Positions 2,454 through 50,905 of a stretch of DNA of 54,250 nucleotides are shown here, piece after piece. The first letter of the stretch is position 1; each line of letters starts with the position of its first letter. The notes under the pieces were generated by a model. That model was not told the DNA's origin and did not search any database. It saw only the letters and a program-made list of their open reading frames with translations. The DNA is from Proteobacteria bacterium UBA1148 (GTDB lineage Bacteria; Pseudomonadota; Gammaproteobacteria; Steroidobacterales; Rariloculaceae): the NCBI GenBank assembly GCA_002311835.1, contig DBZY01000013.1, positions 6,664 to 60,913 of the forward strand, read 5' to 3'. The translations under genes and the position numbers were made by a program.

Positions 2454-3452
2454 ATGACAATTAAAACACGAAAAATTGGATCCCTGGAAGTTTTTGCCAT
2501 AGGGGTAGGCTGCCGGGGGCTCTCAGGTCCCTACGGGTCACCGCCATCCGAAATGGAAACGACCAAACTTCTGAACCAGGCTTTGGATTTGGGCTATAAC
2601 CTATTCGATACCGCAGCTCTATATGGATTCGGAGACAACGAAAAACTTTTAGGGCGGATCTTGAAAAATCGTCGTCACGAATGTGTATTGGCAAGTAAAT
2701 GCGGTATTTTCAAAAATTCTAAAGGCCAACGAGAATTAGACGGCCGACCTGAGACACTGATTAAGACATGTAATGAAAGTCTACGTCGTCTCAAAACCGA
2801 TGTAATTGACCTTTACTATCTGCATAGGTGGGATCGGCGAGTTCCAATCGATGAAAGTATTGGCGCATTAAAGGAGCTTGTTGAGGCGGGCAAAATTAAG
2901 GAAATCGGCGTATCTGAAGTTTCCGCTAAACTCCTACGTGAAGCTCATCGAAAACACTCCATTAGCGCACTACAATCGGAATATTCACTTTGGACCAGAA
3001 ATGCGGAGATTAAGGTTCTTGATACATGTAAATCCATTGGTTCGGCATTCGTTGCCTTCAGCCCTTTAGGTCGTGGTTTCTTAACCGGTAGTGTGCGCGA
3101 CTCCTCAAAACTAGTGGCTAATGACCTGCGTCTCACCATGCCTCGTTTCCAAGGCAAGAACCTCACCGCTAATCTGCGTTTGCTGGATGGCTACACCAAT
3201 ATTGCGCGAGAAAATAACTGTTCGATGGCACAACTAAGTCTGGCATGGTTATTGGCCCAGAGTGACCACATTATTCCTATTCCAGGAGCGACGACTCTTC
3301 AACATCTGGAAGAAAACGTTGGCGCCATGAAGATAGAGTTATCAAATACTACCTTGGACCGACTCAATGCGCTCATCAACCAAAACACCGTATCTGGCCC
3401 GCGCTATGGCCCCAATGTTCAGCAGGAACTCGACACTGAAGAGTTCGCTTAA
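2454..3452 (+). CDS. aldo/keto reductase (cytoplasmic)
   Basis: 332-aa ORF. AKR signatures are present: GVGCRGLSG, FDTAALYG, DLYYLHRWD, IKEIGVSE and IPIPGATTLQHLEEN. It ends 12 nt before cofE. Confidence 0.85.
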   Translation: MTIKTRKIGSLEVFAIGVGCRGLSGPYGSPPSEMETTKLLNQALDLGYNLFDTAALYGFGDNEKLLGRILKNRRHECVLASKCGIFKNSKGQRELDGRPETLIKTCNESLRRLKTDVIDLYYLHRWDRRVPIDESIGALKELVEAGKIKEIGVSEVSAKLLREAHRKHSISALQSEYSLWTRNAEIKVLDTCKSIGSAFVAFSPLGRGFLTGSVRDSSKLVANDLRLTMPRFQGKNLTANLRLLDGYTNIARENNCSMAQLSLAWLLAQSDHIIPIPGATTLQHLEENVGAMKIELSNTTLDRLNALINQNTVSGPRYGPNVQQELDTEEFA

Positions 3453-3464
3453 GCGCTAGATCAC

Positions 3465-4235
3465 ATGGCAGACCAAATACTTAACTTATTGGCAATTCCA
3501 CAGATGCCTATGATCAGGCCAGGCGACGATCTCCCCGAAATTCTGATTGCCGCGCTGGATAAGGCTGACCTTAAACCCCAAGCGCAGGATATCTTGGTCC
3601 TTGCACAGAAAATCGTATCGAAGGCAGAGGGTCGATACGTCAACCTGGAAGATGTCATACCTTCTGAACGCGCGTTAAACCTGGCAAAAGCGGTAGAAAA
3701 AGATCCCCGTCTCGTGGAGGTCATCCTCTCCGAGTCAGAAGAAGTAGTCGGACACAAGCCGGGGGTCTTAGTAGTCGCGCATCGATTAGGCCTCATATTG
3801 GCAAATGCTGGTGTTGACCGTTCAAATCTAGACCCAGAGTTTGATGGAGAACATGCTTTGTTGCTTCCAGTAGCTCCCGATCACTCAGCACATTGCATAA
3901 AAGCTCGTCTAGACGAGCACTACGAAACCGAGGTTGGGGTAGTGATTAGCGACAGTGTGGGGCGTCCCTGGCGCAATGGAACCGTTGGCATTGCCTTAGG
4001 TACATCTGGTATACCCGCGCTTCGTGATTTTATCGGTCAAACTGATTTATCTGGCAGATCTCTGGAAGTGACCCAAACAGGGTTTGCAGACGAGTTAGCC
4101 TCTGCAACATCCCTTTTGATGGGTCAGGCCAATGAAGGTATACCAGCCGTGCTCGTTCGTGGACTTAAATGGGACGAACCGGATTTAAACGCAAAATCAC
4201 TGCAGCGGGCAAAAGAGGATGACCTCTTCCGGTGA
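3465..4235 (+). CDS. cofE: coenzyme F420-0:L-glutamate ligase, single-domain CofE type
   Basis: 256-aa ORF. The strings PGDDLPEIL..., ILVLAQKIVSKAEGR, ...HRLGLILANAGVDRSN... and VVISDSVGRPWRNGTVGIALG match the CofE / FbiB N-terminal domain pattern. There is no C-terminal nitroreductase-like domain. The stop overlaps the cofC start (GTGA). Confidence 0.85.
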   Translation: MADQILNLLAIPQMPMIRPGDDLPEILIAALDKADLKPQAQDILVLAQKIVSKAEGRYVNLEDVIPSERALNLAKAVEKDPRLVEVILSESEEVVGHKPGVLVVAHRLGLILANAGVDRSNLDPEFDGEHALLLPVAPDHSAHCIKARLDEHYETEVGVVISDSVGRPWRNGTVGIALGTSGIPALRDFIGQTDLSGRSLEVTQTGFADELASATSLLMGQANEGIPAVLVRGLKWDEPDLNAKSLQRAKEDDLFR

Positions 4236-4930
4236 CAAAAAAAACTGAGCATATAGAGACATGGGCCCTAGTACCCATGAAATCACTAACCGAGGCAAAA
4301 CATAGGCTGTCTGGTATGTTTAGCTTAAGTGAACGTCGCGACCTATCTCTCGCAATGCTCTCCGACGTGCTCACAACGTTAAAACAGATAAGTCACCTAG
4401 CTTCTACTGCTGTGATCACTCATGACCCCTTAGTCTTAGATTTGGCGCACTCATGGAACACGCGTGTACTAAAGGAATCCAAGACGGGTGTTAATGCTGC
4501 AGTAACAGAAGCCGCTAAAATCCTGAGCCTAGAATCCTGTACCACAATGTTGGTAGTGCCAGGAGACGTTCCCTTGGCTACGCCTGAAGAATTCTCTGCG
4601 CTGCTTGAGATGCAAAAACCTGGTGCTACGATCAGCATAGCTACCGATCATAGAGGCACTGGTACAAACGCTCTCGCCTGTTCGCCGCCCACGGTGATCG
4701 CGCCCTGTTTTGGTCAACGCAGTTTGGTTCGTCACCAGGAAGCTGCACGAAACGTGGGGACCGTTGCAACCGTACTCAAGCTGCCTGGCCTTGCTCTAGA
4801 TATTGATATTCCAGATGATATCGCGCGCCTATTAGAAAAGAAGCCGCAAGGCCATACCTACGCATTCTTGCGCAAAGTTGTCGGTGAGACGCTCTATCAA
4901 GTACCGGTCATTACCAACGAGCAAACATAG
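4232..4930 (+). CDS. cofC: phospho-donor guanylyltransferase for F420 biosynthesis (CofC/FbiD family)
   Basis: 232-aa ORF. The N-terminal WALVPMKSLTEAKHRLSG...RRDLSLAMLSDVL and the mid-protein VVPGDVPL are typical of CofC/FbiD. It is translationally coupled to cofE. Confidence 0.75.
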   Translation: MTKKTEHIETWALVPMKSLTEAKHRLSGMFSLSERRDLSLAMLSDVLTTLKQISHLASTAVITHDPLVLDLAHSWNTRVLKESKTGVNAAVTEAAKILSLESCTTMLVVPGDVPLATPEEFSALLEMQKPGATISIATDHRGTGTNALACSPPTVIAPCFGQRSLVRHQEAARNVGTVATVLKLPGLALDIDIPDDIARLLEKKPQGHTYAFLRKVVGETLYQVPVITNEQT

Positions 4931-5018
4931 ATTAACTATTACCGCTGCGAGAGAACCCCCATAATACAATTACCATGTGCATTTACATCACACTTAACTC
5001 AAGGCTAAGGAGCAATGG

Positions 5019-6521
5019 GTGAAAGTACTAGCCAAGTTGCAAAAGAATAGACCCCCCTTCCTCGTTAGTCAGTTGCTCAAACTATTATCTGGGCCCCTGT
5101 TTTTACTAATAATATATTCCATCGAAATGGAAGGCATGGTGCACGGATCCAAGATTGCGTTCGGGACTCTGGCATGGATGGTAACGTGGTGGATTCTGCG
5201 CCCAGCACCTTGGGGAATTACGGCTTTGCTTCCTCTCATCGTGTTTCCGTTGAGCGGAACACTTGGCATTGTAGATACTGCTGCTCTCTACGGACAAAGA
5301 GTTTTCTTCTGGTTGATGGGCCTCTCTCTACTCGCGTTCGCTCTTATTAAGCATGGCATTGCAAAACGATTTGCGCTTGCGTTCTTAACTATCCCGGGCA
5401 TCGGAGACAGCACAAGCCGATTACTCTTCTTCTTTATGCTTGCTACCGCCTGCGTTTCCATGTTTGTTTCAGACGGATCTGCTGTCGCAATAATGCTACC
5501 TATCGGGCTATCTATTCACGCCTATATCATGACTCTAAGCGGCCAGGATATTTCTGAGAACAACGGTCCTCGACTCCGAACATTCTTTGCGTTAGGTACG
5601 TTATACGCTGCAGTCTCGGGAGGTATTGCCACTCTAGTTGGGATGCCACATAGCGCGGTAGCTATGGATCAATTAGAAACGTTGACGGGCAGAGAAATTG
5701 GCTGGTTCACCTGGATGAGCCTTGGCGTACCCATCTTTGCTACGTTACTCGTATGCAACTACTTTCTACTTCGATTCTTTTTTAAACCCGAGGTGGAATC
5801 AATTCCTGGAGGCCGAGATTTTTTGTTTGAGGAAAGGAGAAAACTTGGGCGAATGTCATTAGGCGAGAAGAGCGTTCTCTCCATTTTTCTGACGATGGCT
5901 GCGCTCTTCGTGATTCCCTCACTCCTGCCAGGCATCCTTGGCGAAGAGAACGCCTTCTCGATTTGGGTAGATAACGCGATATCTATTTGGATGGTACCGC
6001 CTTTTGTCATGCTGTTGCTCTTCATAGCCCCAAGCAACCTTCAGAAGCACGAATTCGTACTGGACTGGAAAGAGGCCAACGAACATATTTCCTGGGGAGT
6101 CCTGCTTATGGTAACCAGTGCGATAGCCGTGGTGCAGGCGCTATCGAGCTTCGGTTTTACTGAAGTCCTCGCACAGTATATTAGGGACGCGAGTGTGCCT
6201 GCCTATGGCTTGCCTTACGTAACAGGTCTCGCCACTTCCATTTCAACGAATTTCATGTCCGGCGTAGCTGCCGCAGCCCTGATAACGGCCGTGATGGTGC
6301 CTGTTGCGGAGACGGTAAATTTCAGTACTGTCGCCATTACAATCATGGTCCCAGCAACTGCGATGGGAATAGTTTTTCCGTGGGCTGGACCTACTGTGGG
6401 TACAGCATTTGGGATTAGTAATATCGAGCTTAAGGACCTGATTAGGGTTGGCATTGTGGCAGAAATCATCATGATAATCGTCGCCGGCACTTACTGCTTA
6501 CTCATTGGACCTTTTCTATAA
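5019..6521 (+). CDS. SLC13/DASS-type (ion-transporter superfamily) anion permease
   Basis: 500-aa polytopic membrane ORF. Its two-repeat architecture and hairpin-like TSISTNFMSGVAAAALI segment resemble DASS/ArsB-NhaD permeases. It starts 88 nt downstream of cofC on the same strand. Confidence 0.6.
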   Translation: MKVLAKLQKNRPPFLVSQLLKLLSGPLFLLIIYSIEMEGMVHGSKIAFGTLAWMVTWWILRPAPWGITALLPLIVFPLSGTLGIVDTAALYGQRVFFWLMGLSLLAFALIKHGIAKRFALAFLTIPGIGDSTSRLLFFFMLATACVSMFVSDGSAVAIMLPIGLSIHAYIMTLSGQDISENNGPRLRTFFALGTLYAAVSGGIATLVGMPHSAVAMDQLETLTGREIGWFTWMSLGVPIFATLLVCNYFLLRFFFKPEVESIPGGRDFLFEERRKLGRMSLGEKSVLSIFLTMAALFVIPSLLPGILGEENAFSIWVDNAISIWMVPPFVMLLLFIAPSNLQKHEFVLDWKEANEHISWGVLLMVTSAIAVVQALSSFGFTEVLAQYIRDASVPAYGLPYVTGLATSISTNFMSGVAAAALITAVMVPVAETVNFSTVAITIMVPATAMGIVFPWAGPTVGTAFGISNIELKDLIRVGIVAEIIMIIVAGTYCLLIGPFL

Positions 6522-6536
6522 TAGATCGAATAACCA

Positions 6537-7283: not shown

Positions 7284-7289
7284 CCTCAG

Positions 7290-8315: not shown

Positions 8316-8440
8316 CTTTACACCTCCGGTTCAATCTCTCAAAGAACGTATATATTTCACTGTATAATTTTACTCAGGTCATTCCTGCTGACACATTTCT
8401 CGAATCTTCCAGCCCTATTCTGGCATAGACCGAGCATCGC

Positions 8441-10858
8441 TCACAGTGAGTGTTGCTCACCGCTAACTGGGCAATATTCCTTCGCATGACGATTGCGAAC
8501 AGGCATCAGAGGTTCTACGTTAACCGCCATTGATTTTCTGCTCTTAACTGGTTCCTTGTACAGAGTTGTTCGTTGCTGGGCGAAACGCCCGAGATTTTCA
8601 ACCAAAGCATTCACCTTGTCGGGCGTCAACTCCTGACCGTGACTAGCACCTGCGGCACGAGAAATAGATTCATTCATCAGTGTGCCACCAAGATCATTTG
8701 CACCCGCCTTTAGGCAGTCGGCGGCTCCAGTTGCTCCCAACTTCACCCATGATGTTTGAATATTCCTTACCAGTGGATGAAGTGCCAAGCGCGCAACCGC
8801 GTGCATAAGCAGTGTTTCCCGATAAGTGGGCCCTTTCCGCGCCATTCCTCTTAGATACATAGGCGCCTCCATATGTACAAACGGAAGAGGTACAAATTCC
8901 GTTAGTCCTCCCGTACTCTGCTGTAGATCGCGTATACGTAAAAGGTGTCTTGCCCATGCGCGAGGCGTCTCCATATGCCCAAACATAATGGTCGAGGTCG
9001 TTGGTATACCGAGCCCATGAGCGATACGTATCACGTTAACCCACTCAGCCGTTGATAGCTTATCGGGACAGATAACCCGACGCACATCATCATCTAAGAT
9101 CTCAGCGGCAGTGCCAGGCAGACTACCAAGCCCAGCCTCACGTAATTGCTTCAGAAAAGTCTCAATACTCAAACTGAGTGTTTTAGCCCCGTGCGTAATC
9201 TCCAGCGGAGAAAACGCGTGCACGTGCATCTCGGGCACTGCTTCTTTTACAGCCCGGCAGATCGTCAGGTAGGTATCACCAGTAAATGCTGGATGAATGC
9301 CGCCTTGCAGGCAAACTTCCGTAGCACCCCGGCTCCATGCTTCTTCAGTACGTCGGCAGACCTCATCAAGCTCCAATACATAGGGTTCACCTCGCAAATC
9401 ATCTGTGCTTTTACCTTTGGAGAATGCACAAAAATGGCACTTATACTGACAAACATTCGTGTAATTGATGTTTCTATTGACCACGAAGGTAACGGCATCG
9501 CCACAGGTTTCACGACGGAGGTCGTCAGCACTCTGGCACACAAGATCAAAGTGCTCGCCACGAGCAGCAAACAAAGCTTCGATATCACTCTCAGCCAGAG
9601 ATTCTCCACCCCTCGTTCTACGCAATAACCCAGCGACCCTGCCGCGAGGTATTTGATTCTGCGAACGTTTCTGTAACGAAAAGGGCGTAGGCCCTATTGC
9701 GCCGGGGGACCAATCTTCACAACGCGCGAACCCTTCGCTATCAGAACTCCTCATTACCGGGGTGGAAAGTGCAGGATCAACCCAGTCTTTGCTACGACGC
9801 ACATATTCAGGGTAGATGGTGAGGCGTTGAACCAAAGTTTTACCAGCAGCAGCAGTTCTTTTTCGGAGCACAGATATCTGTGGCCAGGGGGATTCTGGGT
9901 TGACGTGGTCCGGTGTTACGGGAGATACGCCACCCCAATCGTTGATTCCAGCCTTGATCAATTCCGACAAGATCGATGGATTTAGATTTGGTGGCACCTG
10001 AATATTCATCTCGGGGCCGAACAAGTGTCGGGAAATTGCCACCGTCCATAGAAGCTCATCACTATCTGGCGGCTGAACATTTGCCATAATAGTACCCGGC
10101 TTCGGCACGAAGTTTTGGATGATAATCTCTTGCAAATGCCCGTAGCGCTCATGCAATTCCCTGAGTGCTAACAAGCTATCGAGCCGCTCTACTCGAGTTT
10201 CTCCGATGCCGATTAAAATGCCCGAGGTGAACGGAACTTTTGCTTTGCCGGCATTCTCGATAGAAGCAAGCCGGATCTCTGGATTCTTATCTGGCGAACC
10301 GTAGTGAGGCCCACCCGGCTGACACAGTCGCACCGAGGAAGACTCGAGCATCAGTCCCATTGATGGGGAGACAGCGCGCAGCCGCCTATAGTCCTCCAGC
10401 CCCAGCACACCCGGATTCAGATGTGGTAGCAAATCAGTTTCACGTAGCACCAGCTTGGCCATTTTCTCGACATACTCCAACGTCGACTTACAACCCAGAT
10501 CGCTCAGGGCTTCGCGCGCAGCTTTGTAACGGAGTTCGGGTTTATCACCCAAAGTAAATAGCGCTTCCTGACAGCCCTCCGCCTGCGCCGCACGCGCTAT
10601 CTCGAGGACTTGTTCTGGTGAGAGATAGATATTCGTGACGTGCCGGGGAGTCTTCGCATAGGTGCAATAGTGACAAACATCGCGACACAGCATAGTGAGG
10701 GGAATGAATGCCTTACGCGAGTAGCTCACTACATCACCCTTAGCATGATCTCGGAGCACACCTGCAGAGGCAATCAGATCCGAAAGCGGCATGCTTTCGG
10801 TAAGCTCTAATACTTTGGATCGGCTGGGGATTAAGTAAGATTTAATCAGCTCACTCAT
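8441..10858 (-). CDS. fbiC: 7,8-didemethyl-8-hydroxy-5-deazariboflavin (FO) synthase, fused CofG+CofH
   Basis: 805-aa ORF with two radical-SAM CxxxCxxC motifs. CRDVCHYC lies in the N-terminal half (CofG) and CQYKCHFC in the C-terminal half (CofH). Length and domain order match bifunctional FbiC. Confidence 0.9.
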   Translation of the reverse strand: MSELIKSYLIPSRSKVLELTESMPLSDLIASAGVLRDHAKGDVVSYSRKAFIPLTMLCRDVCHYCTYAKTPRHVTNIYLSPEQVLEIARAAQAEGCQEALFTLGDKPELRYKAAREALSDLGCKSTLEYVEKMAKLVLRETDLLPHLNPGVLGLEDYRRLRAVSPSMGLMLESSSVRLCQPGGPHYGSPDKNPEIRLASIENAGKAKVPFTSGILIGIGETRVERLDSLLALRELHERYGHLQEIIIQNFVPKPGTIMANVQPPDSDELLWTVAISRHLFGPEMNIQVPPNLNPSILSELIKAGINDWGGVSPVTPDHVNPESPWPQISVLRKRTAAAGKTLVQRLTIYPEYVRRSKDWVDPALSTPVMRSSDSEGFARCEDWSPGAIGPTPFSLQKRSQNQIPRGRVAGLLRRTRGGESLAESDIEALFAARGEHFDLVCQSADDLRRETCGDAVTFVVNRNINYTNVCQYKCHFCAFSKGKSTDDLRGEPYVLELDEVCRRTEEAWSRGATEVCLQGGIHPAFTGDTYLTICRAVKEAVPEMHVHAFSPLEITHGAKTLSLSIETFLKQLREAGLGSLPGTAAEILDDDVRRVICPDKLSTAEWVNVIRIAHGLGIPTTSTIMFGHMETPRAWARHLLRIRDLQQSTGGLTEFVPLPFVHMEAPMYLRGMARKGPTYRETLLMHAVARLALHPLVRNIQTSWVKLGATGAADCLKAGANDLGGTLMNESISRAAGASHGQELTPDKVNALVENLGRFAQQRTTLYKEPVKSRKSMAVNVEPLMPVRNRHAKEYCPVSGEQHSL

Positions 10859-10873
10859 TCAACTCACCTGTTA

Positions 10874-13646: not shown

Positions 13647-13686
13647 TTTGATGGGCCCTCTACCGCAGATTCATTAGTGCAGAAAA

Positions 13687-15429: not shown

Positions 15430-15443
15430 CTTTACGTCCTTTT

Positions 15444-17525: not shown

Positions 17526-17615
17526 GACCTCTTACCTCTCTGATTGATCGGTGGTACACACCGAACTCAATTCCACGTGTACGGACCAACCCTACATGTT
17601 TCCTTATCGCACCAA

Positions 17616-17651
17616 GGATTGTATCCTATATAAGAGTTTTGTATACAATCC
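17616..17651. promoter_or_regulatory. candidate GntR/FadR-type operator in the divergent hyuA / hydrolase control region
   Basis: A perfect 9-bp inverted repeat, GGATTGTAT-N18-ATACAATCC. The right arm contains the perfect palindrome TTGTATACAA (17639..17648), which fits the GT-Nx-AC core of GntR-family boxes. A GntR gene sits in the downstream operon. Confidence 0.5.
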
Positions 17652-17681
17652 TGACAACCCAGAAAATTAAGGAAGAAGACT

Positions 17682-18611
17682 ATCAAAGAAGAGCGCGTTT
17701 CGTTCTTTAGTGAGGGTGACCGAATCGCGGGAATCCTCCGTCTACCAAACAGTGGGGCGGCCCCACCATGGCCGGCCATTGTCCAGGGTCCCGGATGGTT
17801 GGGTCTAAAGGACGCCAAACTGTACCTCAGATATCACGCGGCTCTTACTGAGGCAGGCTTTGCTGTTCTGATTTTCGACTACCGAGGCTTTGGTGAGTCT
17901 GAGGGGCGAACAGATCTTTTGCGACCACAAGATCAACTTGAAGATCTGATCAACGCCGTGTCGTATCTCATCACGCGTGACGATGTTGATGCTGACAACA
18001 TTGGCGCCTTTGGCTCGGGCGGAACTGGTGGCGGTAATGCGCTAGTGTTGGCAGCGCAGGACCCTCGCGTCTGTTGTGCTGTATCACAGGTTCCAGTGGC
18101 CGATGGAAGAGACTGGCTACATCGAATGCGACGAGAATATGAGTGGCTGGAGTTTCTTGAACGCATCGAGGCAGATAGGGCACGTCGCGTACTCACAGGA
18201 AAAGGTGAGTTAGTCCACCCACGCCAAGAAATTATGGTGCCAACACCAGAACGAAAAAAAACGAACATTAAAAAGGACGTTGACTCAAAGATCCAAGAAG
18301 AGATCCTCCTGCGTAGCGCTGAATATATACTAGATTACAAACCAATAGAGTTGGTTAAAAAAATCGCTCCGCGCGCAGTAATGATCATTGGTGTAGAAAA
18401 TGATGCCACCACACCAACCGATCATGCGATCGCTCTCTATGAGGCAGCGGGTCAGCCAAAAAAGCTGATCTTACAAAGGCACACGACGCACTACGCAGCC
18501 TATGAAAAATACGGTGACACAGTCACACCTGAAATTGTTGATTGGTTCCGCAAACACATGACCCGCGGTAACTTGGATATCCGCCAGGAGGAGAAAAAAA
18601 ATGAAAGTTGA
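17682..18611 (+). CDS. alpha/beta hydrolase (start codon uncertain)
   Basis: The frame is open from 17655. Family-like N-terminal sequence (KEERVSFFSEGDRIAGILRLP...PAIVQGPGWLG) lies upstream of the first canonical start, the TTG at 17799. FDYRGFGESEG and a nucleophile-elbow-like GSGGTGGG are present. ATC at 17682 lies 6 nt after AAGGAAG. Confidence 0.7.
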   Translation: MKEERVSFFSEGDRIAGILRLPNSGAAPPWPAIVQGPGWLGLKDAKLYLRYHAALTEAGFAVLIFDYRGFGESEGRTDLLRPQDQLEDLINAVSYLITRDDVDADNIGAFGSGGTGGGNALVLAAQDPRVCCAVSQVPVADGRDWLHRMRREYEWLEFLERIEADRARRVLTGKGELVHPRQEIMVPTPERKKTNIKKDVDSKIQEEILLRSAEYILDYKPIELVKKIAPRAVMIIGVENDATTPTDHAIALYEAAGQPKKLILQRHTTHYAAYEKYGDTVTPEIVDWFRKHMTRGNLDIRQEEKKNES

Positions 18612-19974
18612 TGTTGCAATAACAGGTGGGCGGGTTTTCTCTGCCAATGGCGGTAAAGATCTCGATGTCCTAATCAACGGTGAAAAAATTACCGCTGTCG
18701 TAGAACCAAATTCCGAAGGAATAGAGGCAACGAAAACCATCGATGCTACTGACCTCTGGGTGCTCCCTGGCATGGTGGACCCACATGTTCATACTCGCGA
18801 GCCCGGACACACTCACAAGGAAGACATCTTGACGTGTAGCCAGGCTTCAGCCGCTGGGGGTGTTACGACTATTTTTGGAATGCCTAACCTAAAGCCGGCT
18901 ACGCTAACGCACAAAGACCTTGTAGATGTCCTAGGACTTTATGCTGAGAAGTGCTTGGTTGACTACAACCATAACCCCGTGCCGACATTAGGTGAGGTTG
19001 ATGCAATGGCGGAGACCGGTATCGCAGCATATAAGGTATACCAAGTCATCGATACCGGACGCGACTATCCTCACCCCTCTGGTACAGGTATCACTGACTC
19101 TGGCCATCTATTACAGATGTTTGAAGCTGTTTCGACAACTGGCAAACGATTTATGGTTCATCCTCACAATCAGGGAGTATGTGATCGGGTCGAACAAAGC
19201 TTCCACAAACGTGGAGACCGCAGCGTCGAAGCCTATGCTAAGACGCTGGCGACACACGATGGGCTCATTTGGGATCTTGCGACAGCAGAGCTCATCCGAA
19301 TGTCCGAAGCAACCAACTGTCCGTTACATCTTGTCCATGTACAAACCTCTCGCGGCGTGGAAATGATTCGACAGGCGAAAGAACGGGGTATTGATGTCAC
19401 AGGTGAGGTAAATCACTGGGCATTATTCCTAGGTAGCTGGGACATCGTTACGAAGCTCGGTCCTTATGCTCTGTCTTACTGGGTGCCAGATCACCACCGG
19501 GAAGCTATCGTCAAAGGTTTACAGGATGGCATCATTGATATGGTGAATTCTGATCATGCCCCACATACCCGTGAAGAAAAGGAGATTGGGTGGACCGACA
19601 TGTGGGCATGTCATACAGGCACACCAGGAATTCAATTCCAATATCCATTGATGATTGATGCCGTACATCGGGGTGAATTCACCATGGAACGAACTATTGA
19701 CCTTTGCTGTGAAGCACCTGCACGAGTTTTTAAACTCGACTCAAAGAAAGGCTCAATATCGGCTGGCCTCGATGCCGATATCGTATTGGTAGACCCAAAT
19801 AAAGAATGGACTATCACAGATGACATTGTGTTATCGAAGATCGGTTGGACCCCTTATAACGGACGAAAGTGTCGTGGGCAGGTACTGCGTACGCTGGTAC
19901 GAGGCACTGACGTCTATCTCGACGGAAAAATCGTAGGTACCCCTGGGCATGGAAAACACGCTACTCCAGATTAG
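18601..19974 (+). CDS. cyclic amidohydrolase (dihydroorotase/allantoinase/dihydropyrimidinase superfamily)
   Basis: 457-aa ORF with metal ligand motifs VDPHVHTREPG, AYKVY (candidate carboxylated Lys), HLVHVQT and NSDHAPH. It overlaps the hydrolase gene by 11 nt. Confidence 0.85.
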   Translation: MKVDVAITGGRVFSANGGKDLDVLINGEKITAVVEPNSEGIEATKTIDATDLWVLPGMVDPHVHTREPGHTHKEDILTCSQASAAGGVTTIFGMPNLKPATLTHKDLVDVLGLYAEKCLVDYNHNPVPTLGEVDAMAETGIAAYKVYQVIDTGRDYPHPSGTGITDSGHLLQMFEAVSTTGKRFMVHPHNQGVCDRVEQSFHKRGDRSVEAYAKTLATHDGLIWDLATAELIRMSEATNCPLHLVHVQTSRGVEMIRQAKERGIDVTGEVNHWALFLGSWDIVTKLGPYALSYWVPDHHREAIVKGLQDGIIDMVNSDHAPHTREEKEIGWTDMWACHTGTPGIQFQYPLMIDAVHRGEFTMERTIDLCCEAPARVFKLDSKKGSISAGLDADIVLVDPNKEWTITDDIVLSKIGWTPYNGRKCRGQVLRTLVRGTDVYLDGKIVGTPGHGKHATPD

Positions 19975-19985
19975 GAAAAAAAATT

Positions 19986-20975
19986 GTGGCAACAAAAATG
20001 AAATTTGGACTGCTTCTCCCTCACTTTGGGGAGTATGCATCAAGCACACGCCTCATTAGAGGTGCTCAGCTAGCAGAAGATCTTGGCTTTGATTCCATAT
20101 GGGTTAGGGATCACCTGGTATTTAAGCCTCACTCAGAAATGGAGAAAGCTGTACCAGTATTTTATGAAGCACTCGCCACATTAACAGCCGTGGGCGCGGT
20201 TACCAACCATATTACGCTAGGTACAGGATCGCTCATTCCGTTTCGCCACCCTCTGAACACTGCTTTAGCTCTCGCAACAATCAGCAATATTGTGGGACCA
20301 CGCCTCATTATAGGTTTTGGTGCCGGCACATTCGATCATGAGTTCGAAGCTATTGGTATGGCAGGAATTCCTCGTCCAGAACTAGTGGAATCAAACGCCA
20401 ATATTTTTAAGCGTATCTTTAATGAAAATAATGTTTCGTACAAAGATGATTACTACCAGTTTGAAAATATTTCCATCGAACCAAAACCACTTGGACCAGT
20501 GCCGTTTTGGTATTGTGGTGGCACTCCAAGATCTGCCCGTTTAGCGGTAAAATATGCAGATGGTTGGATGCCCGGCCGTATCACACTCGCAACAATCGAA
20601 AAGCGTGTTGAGGTAATGACCAAACTCTCATCAGAAGCGGGACGATCACTTCCAACCGTTGGTGTTATCCCACCAACATCTATAGCAAAATCACGTGAAG
20701 AAGCATTTGATGGACTCAACGTAGACGGTTTGCTCAAGTGGGCGAATGACCGAGGAAAGTGGTGGGTAAAACCACCTTCAGGGCGTTTCGAAACGGCTGA
20801 AGATATTGAGGGCTCACTCATCGCAGGCTCGCCTTCCGAAGTTGTTGAACAAACGAAAAAATTTGAAAAAGTTGGGGTCGAACACCTAGTTTTCGATTTG
20901 CGCCTTCGTTTTGACCGCTGGTTTGAGTCCATAGAACTGCTGGGAACACAGGTGCTACCACACCTCCGTGAGTGA
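19986..20975 (+). CDS. luciferase-like (LLM class) flavin/deazaflavin-dependent oxidoreductase, possibly F420-dependent
   Basis: 329-aa ORF. The N-terminus MKFGLLLPHFG...AEDLGFDSIWVRDHL is typical of LLM TIM-barrels. Cofactor type cannot be decided by eye. ATG at 19998 is an alternative start. Confidence 0.75.
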   Translation: MATKMKFGLLLPHFGEYASSTRLIRGAQLAEDLGFDSIWVRDHLVFKPHSEMEKAVPVFYEALATLTAVGAVTNHITLGTGSLIPFRHPLNTALALATISNIVGPRLIIGFGAGTFDHEFEAIGMAGIPRPELVESNANIFKRIFNENNVSYKDDYYQFENISIEPKPLGPVPFWYCGGTPRSARLAVKYADGWMPGRITLATIEKRVEVMTKLSSEAGRSLPTVGVIPPTSIAKSREEAFDGLNVDGLLKWANDRGKWWVKPPSGRFETAEDIEGSLIAGSPSEVVEQTKKFEKVGVEHLVFDLRLRFDRWFESIELLGTQVLPHLRE

Positions 20976-21640
20976 CTGTAGATAATGCCGTGACAACCAT
21001 AGCGGACAAGGTTTCTCGTCAACTGGCAGAAGAAATCATATCTGGGGTCATCTCACCGGGCCAAAAATTAGAAGAGCAAAATCTAGCCGAAAAGTTTAGC
21101 GTTTCGCGCTCACCAATTCGCGATGCACTGCGGCAACTTAGCGGAACAGGCCTAGTCGATATCAAGCCGAATCATAGTGTTACTGTCGTCGACCTCAAAG
21201 TGGATCAGTTGCACGATATGTACGAAGCGCTTGGCGAATTAGAAGCACTTTGTGCAAAATTCTGCGCCCAAAGAATGACGACTGTTGAGCGCAAACAACT
21301 CGAAGAGCTACATCAAAGATCGGCGATAGCAGTCAGGAAAAAAAGCAAAAAAACCTACGCAGATCTAAACGATCAATTTCACGACATGCTCCATCAAGGA
21401 TCCCATAATAAGAGTTTGCACAGCATCTCTGGAGAGTTGCGGCGGCGGCTTGCACCATTTCGCAGACCTACATTTTTTCGCGGGACAAAACGTCTCAAAG
21501 ACTCATGGGATGAACATGACAATGTTGTAAATGCAGTTCTAGCAGCAGATGCCAAACGCGCGCACGCAGAGATGGGAAGACATTTAGTGAACTCTAGTTT
21601 AAACGTTATCTCATATATCGAAGAAACCCGAGACTCATAA
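20972..21640 (+). CDS. GntR family transcriptional regulator (FadR/FCD subfamily)
   Basis: 222-aa ORF with an N-terminal winged-helix pattern (LEEQNLAEKFSVSRSPIRDALRQL) and a helical C-terminal FCD-like domain. GTGA overlap with the preceding LLM gene. Confidence 0.85.
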   Translation: MTVDNAVTTIADKVSRQLAEEIISGVISPGQKLEEQNLAEKFSVSRSPIRDALRQLSGTGLVDIKPNHSVTVVDLKVDQLHDMYEALGELEALCAKFCAQRMTTVERKQLEELHQRSAIAVRKKSKKTYADLNDQFHDMLHQGSHNKSLHSISGELRRRLAPFRRPTFFRGTKRLKDSWDEHDNVVNAVLAADAKRAHAEMGRHLVNSSLNVISYIEETRDS

Positions 21641-21653
21641 AGGTAAACTTTAT

Positions 21654-22658
21654 ATGCTCAAACTTGGATACAAAGCCTCCGCCGAACAATTCGGACCCAG
21701 TGAACTACTATCCTATACACTTTTAGCAGAGGAACAGGGTTTCGACTCGGCCTTTGTGAGCGATCACTTTCAACCATGGCGTCACAATGGCGGACATGCC
21801 CCATTTGCCCTCGCTTGGCTAGGTGCGGCCGGTGCTAAAACCTCACGCATCGTGCTCGGAACCAGCGTTCTTACACCAACCTTTAGATATCACCCCTCCA
21901 TCATTGCTCAGTGCTTTGGGACGTTGGGATCGATGTTCCCCGGCCGTATCATTCTAGGCATTGGTACGGGGGAGTCATTGAATGAGGTGCCAGCTTGCGG
22001 AGTCGAGTGGCCGGCAATTAAGGAGCGCTTTGCACGATTACGTGAAGCAGTCAGATTGATACATACGCTCTGGTCAGAGGAACGAGTTAGTTTCGACGGC
22101 GAGTTTTATACCACAGAGAATGCCACTATCTATGATCGACCCGACCAAGCACCACCAATCTATATTGCGGGTGCCGGTCCTATGATCGCAAAGTTCGCTG
22201 GTCGGACGGCCGATGGTTTCATTTGTACCAGTGGTAAGCCAACAGAGCTTTATAGCGAAAAACTCCTACCTAATGTATCAGCAGGCCTTGAAGCAGCGGG
22301 CCGGAGACCCGAAGATGTCGAACTCACAATTGAGCTCAAAGTCTCGTTCGATACCGATGGAAAAAAAGCACTCGAAGATACGCGCCATTGGGCGGTACTT
22401 GCTTTATCGCCAGAAGAAAAAATGTCGGTTAAGGATCCTTTGGAGATGGAACGCCTTGCCGACAGCTTACCTCTAGAACGTGCGGCATCACGGTGGATTG
22501 TTTCTACAGATCCCGATGAGCATATTGAGAAAATTCGCCCCTACATAGATCTCGGGTTTCGCCATCTCATATTCCACGCACCAGGACCGGATCAGGAGCG
22601 TTTTATCCGCCTCTATGCCGAAACCGTGCTCCCTAAGCTTCGAGACGCATTCAATTAA
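21654..22658 (+). CDS. fgd: F420-dependent glucose-6-phosphate dehydrogenase
   Basis: 334-aa ORF. From memory it is collinear with mycobacterial Fgd1 over the full length: KLGYKASAEQF, SDHFQPWRHNGGHAPF, LGTSVLTPTFRYHP, GTGESLNE, ERFARLRE, DGFICTSGK, RWIVS.DPDE and HLIFHAPG. Confidence 0.85.
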   Translation: MLKLGYKASAEQFGPSELLSYTLLAEEQGFDSAFVSDHFQPWRHNGGHAPFALAWLGAAGAKTSRIVLGTSVLTPTFRYHPSIIAQCFGTLGSMFPGRIILGIGTGESLNEVPACGVEWPAIKERFARLREAVRLIHTLWSEERVSFDGEFYTTENATIYDRPDQAPPIYIAGAGPMIAKFAGRTADGFICTSGKPTELYSEKLLPNVSAGLEAAGRRPEDVELTIELKVSFDTDGKKALEDTRHWAVLALSPEEKMSVKDPLEMERLADSLPLERAASRWIVSTDPDEHIEKIRPYIDLGFRHLIFHAPGPDQERFIRLYAETVLPKLRDAFN

Positions 22659-22669
22659 GGATCATTCCT

Positions 22670-23698
22670 TTGCTTGATTCCGACCCAAAGCTCAAATCAT
22701 CCTCTGAGACGCGTCCAACTTCGGTAATCGCTCTCACAGGTGGAGTCGGCGGTGCAAAACTTGCATTAGGCCTTCATCGTATTCTTGCTCCTGGGGATTT
22801 CATGATAATTTGCAACACAGGTGATGACTTTTATCATCTAGGTCTCGAGATATCCCCAGATATAGACACAGTCCTTTACACACTCTCAGGATTAGCAGAT
22901 CCGTCCCGAGGCTGGGGACGCCGTGACGAGACATGGAATTTCATGGCAGCTCTCGAAGAAATTGGTGGTCATACCTGGTTTCAGCTTGGTGATCAGGATT
23001 TAGCTACTCACATTGAGCGTACAAAACGACTCACAGAAGGCGAAACTTTGTCAGCTGTCACCGATTATTTTCGGCAACAACTTGGAATCGCCACACGTAT
23101 TGTGCCCATGAGTGATGATCCTGTCCGGACACGGCTACGCACTACAATGGGCTGGATTGATTTTCAGGATTACTTCGTACGCCAAAACTGTAAGCCGTCG
23201 GTAAGGGAAATAGCATTCGATAACGTAGAAACGGCGCGTATAGCCCCAGCTATCCTACCCGCTTTAAGTGACCCACACCTTCGTGCCGTTGTTATTTGTC
23301 CATCGAACCCGCTCATCAGCGTTGAGCCCATCTTAGCTGTGCCCGGCATGCGCAGAGCGTTACGTTCCTGCACTGCACCCGTAATTGGCATCTCTCCCAT
23401 CATTAATGGTCAAGCCGTCCGAGGGCCAGCAGCTAAGCTGATGGAAGAACTCGGGTTTGAACCGAGCGCTTCAGCGGTCGCACAACGTTATACCGACGTG
23501 ATTGACACCTGGATCGTTGATGAATCGGATGCAGACGCGCGCGTACCTACGGGCGTCGAAAAAGTCGTTACCGAGACATTAATGATCACTATAAAAGATC
23601 GTGAGAAACTCGCTCAGAAGGTGCTTGCCGTAGCCCAACAACGAGGCCGAGAAGAATCAAGTGTAACTATGACATCGAATGTGATGAGTGATGACTAA
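22670..23698 (+). CDS. cofD: 2-phospho-L-lactate (or analogous phospho-donor) transferase, CofD/FbiA
   Basis: 342-aa ORF with VIALTGGVGGAKLALGL near the N-terminus and ICNTGDDF, both typical of CofD. TTG start in the ORF track. Confidence 0.85.
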   Translation: MLDSDPKLKSSSETRPTSVIALTGGVGGAKLALGLHRILAPGDFMIICNTGDDFYHLGLEISPDIDTVLYTLSGLADPSRGWGRRDETWNFMAALEEIGGHTWFQLGDQDLATHIERTKRLTEGETLSAVTDYFRQQLGIATRIVPMSDDPVRTRLRTTMGWIDFQDYFVRQNCKPSVREIAFDNVETARIAPAILPALSDPHLRAVVICPSNPLISVEPILAVPGMRRALRSCTAPVIGISPIINGQAVRGPAAKLMEELGFEPSASAVAQRYTDVIDTWIVDESDADARVPTGVEKVVTETLMITIKDREKLAQKVLAVAQQRGREESSVTMTSNVMSDD

Positions 23699-24434
23699 TA
23701 CCCCACAACTCAACCTAAAAAATACTGAAGTGAAAATCTATTCTGACGTGGATCTCCTGGCACATGCAGCTGCAACCCTGCTGTGCAATCGCCTATCTTC
23801 TACAAAAGGTGATATAGCGGTATCACTTGCGGGCGGCTCAACCCCAAAGCGGCTCTACGAACTTCTTGCGAGTCCAACTTATCTTGAACAGATACCCTGG
23901 AAACGCGTCCACTGGTTTTGGGGCGATGAACGATTCGTTCCGCCAGACGACCCACAAAGCAACTTCTCCATGTTCAAGACCACTGTGCTATCCCGCGCAC
24001 CCGTTCCAGCAACCAATATTCACCCTATCCCAACCATTGGGCTCACACCAGAAATAGCAGCCGATGTTTATGCTCAAGAGTTACAACGGTTTCATGGGGA
24101 AAAGGTGCTCTCAGCTAAAAACCCATTATTCGGTGTAGTTATCCTCGGGCTGGGGGAAGACGGCCACACGGCATCTCTGTTCCCTGGTTCGCCTGCCCTG
24201 AAAGAACGTTCGCGCTGGGCGACGTGCGCGAATCTGGATCAGGCCGTACCACGAATCACTCTAACCTACCCCGCCCTAGAGTCTTGCCATGATTGTTTAT
24301 TTCTCGTTACAGGATCAGCTAAAAGAACCATTCTAAGATCTATTTTTCGTGGCGATGTTTTTCCCGCAACGCGTCTAAAACCGCAAGGTCGATGCACTTG
24401 GCTCTTAGATCAAGCGGCTGCGCCCGACGGCTAG
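23688..24434 (+). CDS. pgl: 6-phosphogluconolactonase
   Basis: 248-aa ORF with the motifs LAGGSTPKRLYELL, WGDERFVP and LGLGEDGHTASLFPG. It overlaps cofD by 11 nt. Confidence 0.9.
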   Translation: MMTNTPQLNLKNTEVKIYSDVDLLAHAAATLLCNRLSSTKGDIAVSLAGGSTPKRLYELLASPTYLEQIPWKRVHWFWGDERFVPPDDPQSNFSMFKTTVLSRAPVPATNIHPIPTIGLTPEIAADVYAQELQRFHGEKVLSAKNPLFGVVILGLGEDGHTASLFPGSPALKERSRWATCANLDQAVPRITLTYPALESCHDCLFLVTGSAKRTILRSIFRGDVFPATRLKPQGRCTWLLDQAAAPDG

Positions 24435-24448
24435 GAATTCTTTACACC

Positions 24449-26017
24449 CTAAATTTTTTGTTGTGGCCTCATAGGATTCGGCCAGTCTGTGTGGAATGAC
24501 TGCCCCCGCGGAGCGTCTGTGCGCTCATATGTATGAGCACCAAAGTAGTCGCGTTGAGCCTGCAGCAAATTCGCGGGTAAGGTAGCACTACGATAGCCAT
24601 CGAAGTAGGCCAAAGCAGCCATGAAAGCCGGGCAAGACACTCCCGCCTCGGCGGCTAGACTCACAACTTTACGCCAACCACTTTGTCTCTCCTTCAATTG
24701 CCCTGTGAAATAAGGATCTAATATCAGATTACTTAGATCGTCTTGCTTCTGATAAGCCTCAGTGATCTTTTGCAAGAATCTGGCCCGAATGATGCAACCG
24801 CCACGAAATATTTTAGCCAAATTAGCAAAATTGAGATTCCAACCATACTCCTTTGCTGCTTCCCCCATCAGAGCAAAGCCCTGTGCATATGCACAAATCT
24901 TTGAACAATAAAGTGCATCGCGAACAGCAGCAATCAGAAGCTCCTTCTGCTCGCCGGTAACCGGAGGCAATTTTGGATTATCGAACAATTTGCTCGCGGT
25001 AACGCGTTCATCTTTTTGTGCCGATAGACAGCGGGCAAATACGGCCTCTGCCATGGCGCTGGCGGGACTACCCAGATCTAACGCAGACTGACTACTCCAT
25101 TTCCCAGTACCCTTCTGACCAGCTGCATCAAGTATTCTATCAACCAAGAAATGATCCTCGTCTCCATAATCTCGCTGCTGAAGAATGTCAGCAGTGATCT
25201 CTATAAGAAAAGAATTAAGTTCACCTTCGTTCCACCCTCTAAAGGTCACGCTCATCTCATCTGGACTCATTTGGAGCAACTCTTTCATAAGTTGAAATGC
25301 TTCACATATGAGTTGCATGTCAACGTACTCAATACCGTTATGAACCATCTTCACGTAATGACCCGCGCCGTCCGCACCAACATAGGTCGTACAAGCTTCT
25401 CCATCTGTAACTGGTTCACCGGGTTGAGCTCCCTCAATAGGCTGACCGGTGTCACTGTCAACCTTTGCAGCGATAGCTACCCAAATCGGTTCGAGCAATG
25501 CCCAAGCTTCCTTACTACCACCGGGCATTAGACTTGGCCCGAAGCGGGCGCCCAATTCACCTCCCGAAACTCCAGACCCAATAAAATGGATGCCTTTCCC
25601 GGCAAGCTCCTTCTCACGGCAAACAGTATCGCTCCAAAGTGCATTGCCACCGTCGATGAGTACGTCCCCCTCATCTAGCAAAGGCAAGACAGCCTGGATA
25701 ATCGCCTCGGTAGCGGCACCGGCCTGCACTAACATCACCACTTTACGAGGGCGTTTGAGGCTTTCAATGAAACTATCAAGCGTCTCAAAAGCACTCACGT
25801 TGCTACCACAAGGTTCGACTGCACACCGCTCCATGAAGGATTTGGTTCGTGCATACGTGCGATTGAAGACAGCCACCCTAAAACCGTGATCCACCATATT
25901 TAGGACCAAATTCTGACCCATTACTGCTAGGCCAATAAGGCCAACATCACAGTTGGGTCGCATGCTAGAGAGCTTACTCACCTGAACGAGTATACTTTCA
26001 ATCCGCTCTTCGCTCAT
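24449..26017 (-). CDS. gnd: NADP-dependent 6-phosphogluconate dehydrogenase (decarboxylating)
   Basis: 522-aa ORF with [38 protein letters not shown] and [14 protein letters not shown] at 25963 ([11 protein letters not shown]...) is a plausible shorter start. Confidence 0.9.
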
Positions 26018-26028
26018 GGATAACTTAC

Positions 26029-26583
26029 ATGACGACTATATTGGGACTCTCAGGAAGCTTGCGGTCAAGATCATTCAACACTGCGTTGCTGACTGCAGCC
26101 GCCGAAATGATGCCAGCAGAAATCCAATTAGAAATAACAACCATTCAGGGAATTCCTCTCTATAACGAGGATGTAGAAAGTATGGAAGGCGAGCCCAAGT
26201 CGGTCACAGTTTTAAAACGTCAGATCTCTGACGCCGATGGATTATTGATCTCAACACCGGAGTACAACCACTCAATACCCGGTGTGGCAAAAAATGCTAT
26301 TGACTGGCTTTCACGACCCTTGTCAGATATCCCTCGTATTTTTGGTGCCCGACCAATCGCGATCATGGGTGCAGCGATGAGTAATTTCGGTACCATTCAA
26401 GCACAACGTGCTTGGTTACCTGTATTAAAAGCGCTCGGAGCTCAAGTATGGACTGGTGGGCGACTGCTCGTAAGCGAGGCACATACCGTATTTGATACAT
26501 CCGGTAACCTAGTAAATACACAGGTGGAAGAAGAGCTACGTGTATTTATCGAGGGGTTTGCAAACCACGTCGCAAACAACTAA
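26029..26583 (+). CDS. NAD(P)H-dependent FMN reductase family protein
   Basis: 184-aa ORF with [14 protein letters not shown] and [19 protein letters not shown], typical of the flavodoxin-like FMN reductase family. Confidence 0.8.
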
Positions 26584-27569: not shown

Positions 27570-27576
27570 GGAACGT

Positions 27577-28245: not shown

Positions 28246-28295
28246 TCTCCTTGTTCTCCTTGAAGCTTCTTGGTCGATCGCACTAACCAACCAAT

Positions 28296-28970: not shown

Positions 28971-28985
28971 GGTGGGCTCAGTTTT

Positions 28986-34664: not shown

Positions 34665-34687
34665 CCATCATTCCTTATAGACGCACC

Positions 34688-36021: not shown

Positions 36022-36036
36022 TAGGCAGCGCCCCTC

Positions 36037-36846: not shown

Positions 36847-36870
36847 AGCCTTTCCTTTATCTGTAAACTT

Positions 36871-37947: not shown

Positions 37948-37992
37948 CCTCGCATTTCCCTTTGAAATATAAGGCTTTCAGACAACAGTATT

Positions 37993-38709: not shown

Positions 38710-38746
38710 GCGAGAATATTAAGATGATGAAAGGAGAGGAAAGCCC

Positions 38747-39034: not shown

Positions 39035-39040
39035 GCAAAC

Positions 39041-50871: not shown

Positions 50872-50905
50872 TACCTCTTTAATAAGACGTCTCGTTGCTT
50901 GCGAG

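Follow-up and report, generated by a model that had tools for sequence, protein, structure and literature searches.

Gram-negative bacteria make coenzyme F420, for which the genes are held to have been acquired by horizontal transfer and the physiological role is unsettled (PMC8498797, PMC8764529). Predicted alphaproteobacterial producers encode Fgd, a glucose-6-phosphate dehydrogenase that depends on F420, while Betaproteobacteria encode Fno rather than Fgd (PMC8498797). In this 2021 review, F420 production is reported for Alphaproteobacteria with a stand-alone CofE, and Gammaproteobacteria are not mentioned. Paracoccus denitrificans and Oligotropha carboxidovorans are among the Alphaproteobacteria described as F420 producers in the literature; no publication treating gammaproteobacterial F420 was found in the literature searched. 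Here, we describe an F420 locus in a stretch of 54,250 nucleotides (nt) from contig DBZY01000013.1 of Proteobacteria bacterium UBA1148 (hereafter, the window). It appears to encode a complete pathway for F420 synthesis together with Fgd and two further pentose-phosphate enzymes, Pgl and Gnd, and these genes seem to be linked by a regulator to the breakdown of cyclic amides or ureides, with a luciferase-like oxidoreductase (LLM) as the connecting enzyme. We put the probability of this reading as a whole, which includes an old and vertically inherited cluster, at roughly 0.65.

The window was screened by family scans, for which 54 open reading frames (ORFs) of at least 100 amino acids (aa) served as the non-overlapping gene set. 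Curated cut-offs were those of the NCBIfam/TIGRFAM models, with Pfam used alongside, and scores are given below as bits versus cut-off. The FO synthase gene fbiC (8441..10858, minus strand) encodes a fused CofG-CofH protein (NF006687, 1137.2 vs 1018), both halves of which also match their own models (CofG TIGR03550, 505.6 vs 213.35; CofH TIGR03551, 582.8 vs 374.1). Each half carries one radical S-adenosylmethionine CxxxCxxC motif, CRDVCHYC at residue 58 and CQYKCHFC at residue 470, in agreement with the two motifs noticed in a preliminary description of this DNA. On the plus strand, cofE, encoding a stand-alone F420-0:gamma-glutamyl ligase of 256 aa (3465..4235; TIGR01916, 266.4 vs 180.65), is followed by the guanylyltransferase gene cofC/fbiD (4232..4930; TIGR03552, 159.2 vs 105), which overlaps the cofE stop by 4 nt. 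The transferase gene cofD/fbiA (22670..23698, plus strand; TIGR01819, 304.2 vs 257.45) begins 11 nt after fgd (21654..22658, plus strand; TIGR03554, 480.9 vs 420). The preliminary description had called FbiC, CofC, CofD, CofE and Fgd at these coordinates, and on scoring against NCBIfam every one of the five proteins came out above its cut-off. The toolkit for making F420 and for reducing it with glucose-6-phosphate is thus, as far as gene content can tell, complete and intact. FbiC would make the FO head group, CofC and CofD would attach the phospho-linker, and CofE, which is of the archaeal stand-alone type (best solved structures the archaeal CofE entries 2PHN and 7ULD, 1e-48), would add the glutamate tail.

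The CofC sequence bears on which variant of the coenzyme is made. Ser162 of Mycetohabitans CofC is diagnostic for 3-phosphoglycerate, and the roles of Ser162 and His145 have been described (PMC8764529). The window protein has Gly at the Ser162 position (FGQRS, aligned to FSGPS in 7P97 and FGPDS in 6BWG) and Thr at that of His145, and the Ser or Thr of the 3-phosphoglycerate type is not present at the former position. It is therefore predicted to be of the 2-phospholactate or phosphoenolpyruvate (PEP) type, and the expected product is ordinary F420 rather than the 3-phosphoglycerate-derived form, 3PG-F420.

To place Fgd among its relatives, a genome scan with one genome per species was used, which gave at least 585 confirmed relatives; the neighbourhoods of the best 80 were compared. 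Homologous loci compared with the window carry L-numbers and were viewed with 10-kb flanks. One of these, L083, is a 4.39-Mb contig from another sample with an Fgd that is 87% identical to that of the window. The best matches of the window Fgd among solved structures are 5LXE from Rhodococcus (2.5e-139) and 3B4Y from M. tuberculosis (2e-132), while the model for enzymes that have reverted to flavin mononucleotide (FMN), TIGR03885, scored only 247.6 vs 398.7, so that the protein does not group with the FMN-dependent LLMs. In M. tuberculosis numbering, Fgd keeps His40, Trp44 and Glu109 for catalysis and, in the phosphate pocket, Lys198, Lys259 and Arg283, all six being invariant or nearly so across 84 aligned sequences, and it is predicted to reduce F420 with glucose-6-phosphate.

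The two genes that follow point in the same direction. The 6-phosphogluconolactonase gene pgl (23688..24434, plus strand; TIGR01198, 193.5 vs 124.45) overlaps cofD by 11 nt, and the two genes are likewise adjacent in L083, where they lie 1 nt apart. Convergent with pgl is gnd (24449..26017, minus strand; TIGR00873, 684.6 vs 426.7), encoding the NADP-dependent decarboxylating 6-phosphogluconate dehydrogenase, the start of which is placed by gene callers at 25963. One or both of pgl and gnd stand beside fgd in 11 of the best 80 related loci, mostly gammaproteobacterial ones, and this linkage gives independent support for glucose-6-phosphate as the Fgd substrate. With Fgd, Pgl and Gnd encoded side by side, the whole route from glucose-6-phosphate to ribulose-5-phosphate appears to be present, with F420 as the first electron acceptor: Fgd would reduce F420 at the expense of glucose-6-phosphate, and Pgl and Gnd would carry the product onward. 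We regard these three enzymes as a predicted F420-linked entry branch of the oxidative pentose-phosphate pathway. In L090, a relative with an 88% identical LLM, gene calling gives a single protein of 590 aa for cofD and pgl at 4047-5819 (CofD plus Glucosamine_iso domains); either the genes are truly fused there or the assembly, at 14x, contains an indel error.

The F420 genes are embedded in what look like two tightly packed, divergent operons, with fbiC inside a transport and catabolic one and fgd-cofD-pgl as the tail of the other. The minus-strand string runs from 17525 to 6537 and begins with genes for HyuA-like (15444-17525; caprolactamase/hydantoinase A, 645 bits) and HyuB-like (13687-15429; caprolactamase/hydantoinase B, 354 bits) subunits of ATP-dependent ring-opening enzymes, both below cut-off. 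These are followed by the E1 alpha (12609-13646) and E1 beta (11641-12612) genes of a 2-oxoacid dehydrogenase, both like the E1 component of pyruvate dehydrogenase, and by an ATP-binding cassette (ABC) ATPase gene found by family scan (10874-11641). The gaps from HyuA to the ATPase are at most 40 nt, and fbiC begins 15 nt past the stop of the ATPase gene. Downstream of fbiC lie genes for an SsuA-family substrate-binding protein of the NitT/TauT type (7290-8315) and a NitT/TauT-type, SaoP/TauC-like ABC permease (6537-7283), both assigned to one transporter with the ATPase; the eight genes of the string are all on the minus strand. Between cofC and fbiC, a plus-strand gene encodes a DASS-family anion:Na+ symporter (5019..6521; TIGR00785, 167.3, below the cut-off of 198.6), which takes the same place in L083 (75% identity) and in L092.

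The plus-strand string (17799-24434) consists of abH, an amidohydrolase gene, the LLM gene, a GntR gene, fgd, cofD and pgl, and no gap or overlap between neighbouring genes exceeds 13 nt. The alpha/beta hydrolase gene abH (17799..18611 as listed; Pfam Peptidase_S9/S15) comes first, and its product, which is 86% identical to that of L083, matches the UilS-type lactonase family best in NCBIfam (126.7 bits, below cut-off). The ORF was listed from a TTG at 17799 (270 aa). Upstream of this codon the frame is open and encodes IKEERVSFFSEGDRIAGILRLP, conserved in L083, and in both loci the conserved upstream frame IKEERVSFFSEG follows a Shine-Dalgarno site. The only plausible start is an ATC at 17682 after AAGGAAG, and L083 has the same ATC after GGGAGA; abH therefore probably starts at this rare codon and encodes about 309 aa, in line with homologues of 295-319 aa. 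The cyclic amidohydrolase (18601..19974; Pfam Amidohydro_1) has as its best solved structure 1GKR, a non-ATP-dependent L-selective hydantoinase (2.5e-54), and scores about 240-270 bits with the dihydroorotase, allantoinase and dihydropyrimidinase models, all below their cut-offs. The LLM gene (19986..20975; 329 aa) exists as called in the preliminary description (Pfam Bac_luciferase, 145.7 bits). The GntR/FCD-family regulator gene (20972..21640; PF00392 and PF07729; phnR-like at 129 bits, below cut-off) shares 4 nt with the end of the LLM gene and stops 13 nt ahead of fgd.

The catabolic genes behave as a unit in other genomes. Identities to L083 are 86-87% for each of abH, the amidohydrolase, the LLM and Fgd, and lower, at 58-77%, for the biosynthetic genes. 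The trio of abH, amidohydrolase and LLM recurs in the marine loci L085-L089, mostly labelled Acidimicrobiia, at LLM identities of 66-75%; a gene of the major facilitator superfamily follows the LLM gene in five of these five loci, and in L086-L089 the trio is accompanied by a GntR/FCD gene, a NitT/TauT ABC transporter and OsmC. A GntR/FCD gene also accompanies the abH/LLM module in L083, L090 and L091. In L091, the HyuA-HyuB-E1 genes are divergent from abH-LLM-GntR, an arrangement from which it follows that the block flanking fbiC in the window belongs to the same catabolic module; the block is absent at the L083 locus. An LLM homologue labelled Gemmatimonadales was rejected as evidence for the trio in a second phylum, as it is 88% identical to an Acidimicrobiales-labelled one and shares an identical ten-gene synteny with it, and the conflict of labels (L086/L087 versus L088/L089) is probably a binning error.

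The divergent region of 273 nt between the two strings contains an operator-like element (17615..17652), in which a perfect 10-nt inverted repeat, AGGATTGTAT/ATACAATCCT, overlaps the palindrome TTGTATACAA at 17639-17648. In its general form, this palindrome resembles the operators of GntR-family regulators. The relatives L083, L090, L091 and L092 have related T(G/C)GTATACA sites upstream of cluster genes. Specifically, GTATAC-core sites precede DASS, fbiC/abH, GntR and fgd in L083; L090 has them upstream of GntR and fgd, L091 in its HyuA/abH region, and L092 upstream of DASS and abH. The site TGTATACA stands upstream of DASS in both L083 and L092. In these four loci 15 of the 18 GTATAC sites are intergenic, intergenic DNA making up 10.5% of the sequence, and we regard the palindrome as a good lead towards one common regulon, though short of proof. 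Scans for promoter and terminator consensus sequences gave counts at or below the shuffled expectation, and an Rfam scan of the window found nothing, hence no sign of a riboswitch. Extra copies of the GTATAC core occur in the window at 25990, between gnd and an FMN reductase gene, and as TTGTATACAT at 49231-49239, between the gene for a hypothetical protein of 344 aa and an aldehyde dehydrogenase gene; these may belong to the same regulon or be due to chance. The shared palindrome, the position of fbiC within an ABC/hydantoinase operon, and the genes pgl and gnd all go beyond what the preliminary description contained.

Taken together, this organisation suggests how the locus could work. The GntR/FCD regulator would bind palindromes of the TTGTATACAA type and turn on both strings together when a cyclic amide or ureide substrate is present; F420 would then be made and loaded with hydride from glucose-6-phosphate, the LLM would spend F420H2 in one redox step of the breakdown, and the hydrolases would open the ring and remove the products. 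Such a regulon would include fbiC, cofD, probably cofE and cofC, fgd, pgl, the LLM as an F420H2-dependent reductase, the amidohydrolase and the alpha/beta hydrolase. Tentatively, and with the odds somewhat against it, F420 could on this basis be a dedicated, substrate-induced cofactor for the breakdown of hydantoin-, dihydropyrimidine- or lactam-like compounds, with a single GntR/FCD regulon covering its synthesis, fgd-pgl and the LLM. If true, F420 would have its first defined physiological role in Proteobacteria here, and the catabolic reaction that depends on it would be new. An Fgd-Pgl-Gnd route would, in abundant marine bacteria, direct some of the pentose-phosphate flux to F420H2 instead of NADPH. 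F420-dependent LLMs are, moreover, wanted as biocatalysts. The locus offers a concrete handle on why Proteobacteria make F420, a question left by two publications (PMC8498797, from 2021, and PMC8764529, from 2022).

Much of this depends on the cofactor of the LLM. The preliminary description had reported neither Fno nor FDOR/PNPOx-type enzymes, and indeed no Fno, FDOR/PNPOx or nitroreductase-type protein was found among the 54 ORFs. A GFO/IDH/MocA dehydrogenase (36871-37947) was considered as Fno and rejected, its F420_oxidored Pfam match being a Rossmann-fold cross-hit and its best NCBIfam match iolG-like. The LLM had accordingly been named as the only candidate consumer of F420H2 at this locus; it stands as a reasonable candidate, which may consume F420H2, reduce F420 or use FMN. 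It is a plausible F420 partner because it is wedged between F420 genes in both the window and L083, in one string with fgd-cofD-pgl. In NCBIfam, it matches an F420 family best, F420_Rv2161c (TIGR03619). When a family profile built from 39 members was searched against solved structures, it ranked the F420 enzymes Mer (6e-25), Adf (4e-22), Fgd1 (1e-21) and fHMAD (the range extending to 5e-20) ahead of the FMN enzymes, of which the best was SfnG (4e-17), with RutA at 1e-8. The RDH motif of the LLM aligns with the TDH motif of Mer. Carriers of the family are the F420-encoding clade of the window and, for the rest, mostly Acidimicrobiia, and Actinomycetota commonly use F420. Both context and carrier taxa lean towards an F420-dependent LLM, which we hold to be the somewhat likelier case. 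The string shared with the F420H2 generator Fgd suggests that the LLM consumes F420H2; it may instead be an F420-reducing dehydrogenase.

Several observations weigh against the link between F420 and cyclic amide breakdown as we read it. The LLM stays under the cut-off of every curated F420 LLM family, the best being TIGR03619 at 144.7 vs 166.9, and its second-best profile match is 2B81 (1e-24), a Bacillus cereus protein without an assigned cofactor from a genus that is not known to make F420. Foldseek scored the FMN enzymes SfnG and RutA level with Fgd1 and Mer on an AF2 model of the LLM; structure prediction was therefore set aside as a cofactor test, F420 and FMN enzymes scoring alike despite a good model (pLDDT 91.4). 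No F420 genes lie within 8 kb of the trio in L085-L089, and the OsmC gene beside it would also fit oxygenase chemistry. As to the regulon, the intergenic enrichment of GTATAC sites (binomial 1e-12) comes from four loci that are related to one another and whose intergenic DNA is AT-richer, and the motif count in the window alone is not significant, 12 of 100 shuffles reaching it. Finally, the source of 2-phospholactate and the dehydro-F420 reductase were not found in the window.

Part of this evidence would suit a reading in which the F420 pathway is real, the F420H2 consumers lie elsewhere in the genome, and the LLM is an FMNH2-dependent two-component monooxygenase that adjoins the F420 genes without sharing their cofactor. 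The sub-threshold family scores, the level Foldseek scores and the OsmC neighbour all agree with this. So does the precedent of the Rut pyrimidine pathway, which pairs an LLM with an alpha/beta hydrolase (RutA with RutD) and an amidohydrolase. The reductase that such a monooxygenase needs could be the SsuE-like, NADPH-dependent FMN reductase encoded 5 kb downstream of the LLM gene (26029-26583, divergent from gnd; PF03358, 124 bits), which could serve an enzyme of this type, or one encoded elsewhere. The FMN reductase gene is not near the LLM gene in L083, L085-L089, L091 or L092, however, and with no conservation near the cluster in any relative compared, it was rejected both as the LLM partner and as an F420 enzyme, and counts only as support for the FMN reading. 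The weak profile matches to RutA and SfnG relative to Mer, the size of the LLM, which is that of Mer, Fgd and Adf, the motif shared with Mer, and the tight packing with fgd and cofD in one string also argue for F420. We consider this reading, with an FMN-dependent LLM, unlikely, though less so than the two explanations that follow.

The preliminary description had interpreted the locus as a horizontally assembled island and had called F420 only sporadic in Proteobacteria. The latter view is outdated: 67 of the best 80 of the at least 585 Fgd relatives are from Alpha-, Beta- or Gammaproteobacteria, the remainder being Chloroflexi, Actinomycetota and one Dormiibacterota, and most of the best 80 have cof genes adjacent. 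Within 10 kb of fgd in these 80 loci, cofE was found in 51, cofD in 38, fbiC in 35 and cofC in 27, counts that make chance clustering untenable, and a compact fbiC-fgd-cofE-cofD-cofC arrangement is the usual layout. The combination of Fgd with cof genes can thus be called common in Proteobacteria (dozens of genomes), as judged from gene content, and annotation pipelines already name these genes.

A recent island by which a proteobacterial genome acquired both the synthesis and the reduction of F420 would agree with the horizontal origin given in the literature for Gram-negative F420 genes (PMC8764529, PMC8498797), and with the Acidimicrobiia labels of most LLM relatives outside the clade. It would also suit the neighbour-joining tree of Fgd, where Alpha-, Beta- and Gammaproteobacteria are intermingled, together with some Chloroflexi, although the window clade sits inside the proteobacterial group. 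Neither composition nor mobility genes gave a signal of an island: the F420 genes and the other 40 genes of the window are indistinguishable in GC (0.504 vs 0.499) and in GC at third codon positions (0.461 vs 0.475), a tRNA scan found no tRNA genes in the window, and the family scans found no integrase or transposase in it. The order cofE-cofC-DASS-fbiC-abH-amidohydrolase-LLM-GntR-fgd-cofD-pgl is kept in L083, with gnd nearby, and among the matches listed, the best match of every cluster gene is in the same small clade. Best matches in one clade and conserved order point to vertical descent after an older transfer. Given how widespread the compact operon is in Proteobacteria, any transfer would be old and the layout in the window would have arisen by local rearrangement. 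The evidence thus points to an old, vertically inherited feature of the clade, and recent assembly as an island is improbable. Mobile elements, which would suit an island, do occur in one relative: L092 contains transposase and helix-turn-helix (HTH) fragments (6111-6359 and 9308-9979; DDE_3, HTH_23/28/29/32) inside its F420/LLM cluster, and fgd-cofD-pgl is missing downstream of its LLM gene, which suggests that insertion sequences are rearranging the cluster in that genome.

A last explanation concerns the product itself, namely that no ordinary F420 is made, synthesis halting at FO or at unstable dehydro-F420, or that Fgd is a broader, FSD-like enzyme (FSD, sugar-6-phosphate dehydrogenase) or acts on another substrate. 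CofE matches only positions 9-243 of the 449-position FbiB-type profile NF009810, so that the C-terminal nitroreductase-fold (dehydro-F420 reductase) domain of FbiB was not found in it; its score with NF009809 is just under the cut-off (257.9 vs 274). The family scans of the window found no stand-alone nitroreductase-type (FbiE-type) reductase either. CofD is equally near archaeal CofD (3C3D, 193.7 bits) and mycobacterial FbiA (6UVX, 192.9 bits), so that comparison with solved structures failed to pick between the 2-phospholactate and PEP routes, or between enzymes of the LPPG and EPPG types. Other Proteobacteria with a stand-alone CofE have the same gap as to the linker. Gly177 separates glucose-6-phosphate-specific F420-dependent dehydrogenases (FGDs) from the broader FSDs, which have Ser there and still favour glucose-6-phosphate (PMC6279831). 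The window Fgd differs from the actinobacterial enzymes at His260 (Met, window residue 257) and Gly177 (Ala, window residue 174); position 177 varies widely in the family, with Ala the commonest residue among proteobacterial homologues (54 of 84), and position 260 is Met, Thr or Val in most homologues. With four intact, conserved biosynthetic genes above cut-off, the reports of F420 from Alphaproteobacteria with stand-alone CofE in PMC8498797, a nearly invariant phosphate pocket, a translationally coupled pgl that fits a 6-phosphogluconolactone product and the glucose-6-phosphate preference even of FSDs, this explanation is quite improbable.

The gene next to cofE was also examined in connection with the linker. 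An aldo-keto reductase gene (2454-3452) lies on the same strand, 12 nt upstream of cofE. The homologues of its product are either 94-99% identical (same species) or, across many phyla, at most 65% identical, with none at 75-90%, unlike those of the other cluster genes, and by this pattern it was rejected as the missing linker or dehydro-F420 reductase enzyme in favour of an unrelated neighbour. A tblastn search gave two weak matches in other F420 loci (L069 and L073), with 30-33% identity and about 6-8 kb from cofE. The gene is probably a lineage-specific neighbour, with no comparable identity in the sister lineage.

The rest of the window bears mainly on the host. The window is densely coding, with a GC content of 0.46-0.53 throughout. 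The exact Fgd protein is matched only on metagenome contigs, and among the matches listed, its nearest catalogued relatives are from uncultured marine gammaproteobacterial metagenome-assembled genomes (85% and 79% identity). The host is most likely, judging from these sequences, an uncultured marine gammaproteobacterium, which upholds the diderm, Proteobacteria-like host assumed before, as does the proteobacterial majority among the best 80 loci. Among the neighbours on which that assumption had relied, a cytochrome c (26643-27569), ApbE (29530-30564) and TctA (31431-33413) were confirmed by the family scans, as was a pyrroloquinoline quinone (PQQ) dehydrogenase (41-1975). Beside the gnd/pgl region, a cytochrome c, two family-less proteins (240 and 224 aa) and a DUF6152 protein are encoded in both the window (26643-29429) and L090 (6880-10102), and DUF6152 paralogues occur at 47594-47965 in the window and several times in L083 and L092. 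A second catabolic cluster (33552-40213) contains genes for a creatininase-family amidohydrolase, a cupin, a D-2-hydroxyacid dehydrogenase, the GFO/IDH/MocA dehydrogenase, a second GntR/FCD regulator, a galactarate/altronate-type dehydratase and TctA, with no evidence tying it to F420. The aldehyde dehydrogenase ORF (49435-51042) overlaps the ORF of a thiamine-diphosphate enzyme (50906-52582) by 137 nt; since its Aldedh domain begins at residue 69, its true start is probably further downstream.

Compared with known systems, the locus combines familiar parts in an unfamiliar setting. With hydantoin and dihydropyrimidine clusters it shares an amidohydrolase closest to the L-hydantoinase 1GKR and ring-opening enzymes of the HyuA/HyuB type, while no carbamoylase or racemase gene was seen in the window, its members reach no named equivalog cut-off, and, in contrast to the Rut pathway, the LLM is far from RutA and stands in a string with F420 genes. 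The 3PG-F420 producer Mycetohabitans (Paraburkholderia) rhizoxinica is, like the presumptive host of the window, Gram-negative, with a stand-alone CofE that lacks the reductase domain, and 7P97 is the best solved structure for the window CofC (5.9e-20). The two substitutions for Ser162 and His145 set the window enzyme apart, and use of 3-phosphoglycerate is not predicted for it. The mycobacterial system (FbiC, FbiD, FbiA, FbiB and Fgd1) has in common with the window an orthologous Fgd with the catalytic residues kept and glucose-6-phosphate as the predicted reductant; it differs in the C-terminal reductase domain of FbiB, which the window CofE lacks, and in the position of fgd, near which no FDOR-type consumers lie in the window, and which in the window is co-located with pgl and gnd and in mycobacteria (fgd1) is presumably not adjacent to pgl. 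The compact operon of other Proteobacteria (loci L005-L078) has the same five families, FbiC being fused and CofE stand-alone there too, and its Fgd is an orthologue with 65-75% identity. Relative to this operon, the genes in the window fall into three parts, with catabolic and transport genes set in among them, and pgl is joined onto the fgd-cofD string. The F420 toolkit itself is therefore ordinary as a class, and its architecture is what this locus adds.

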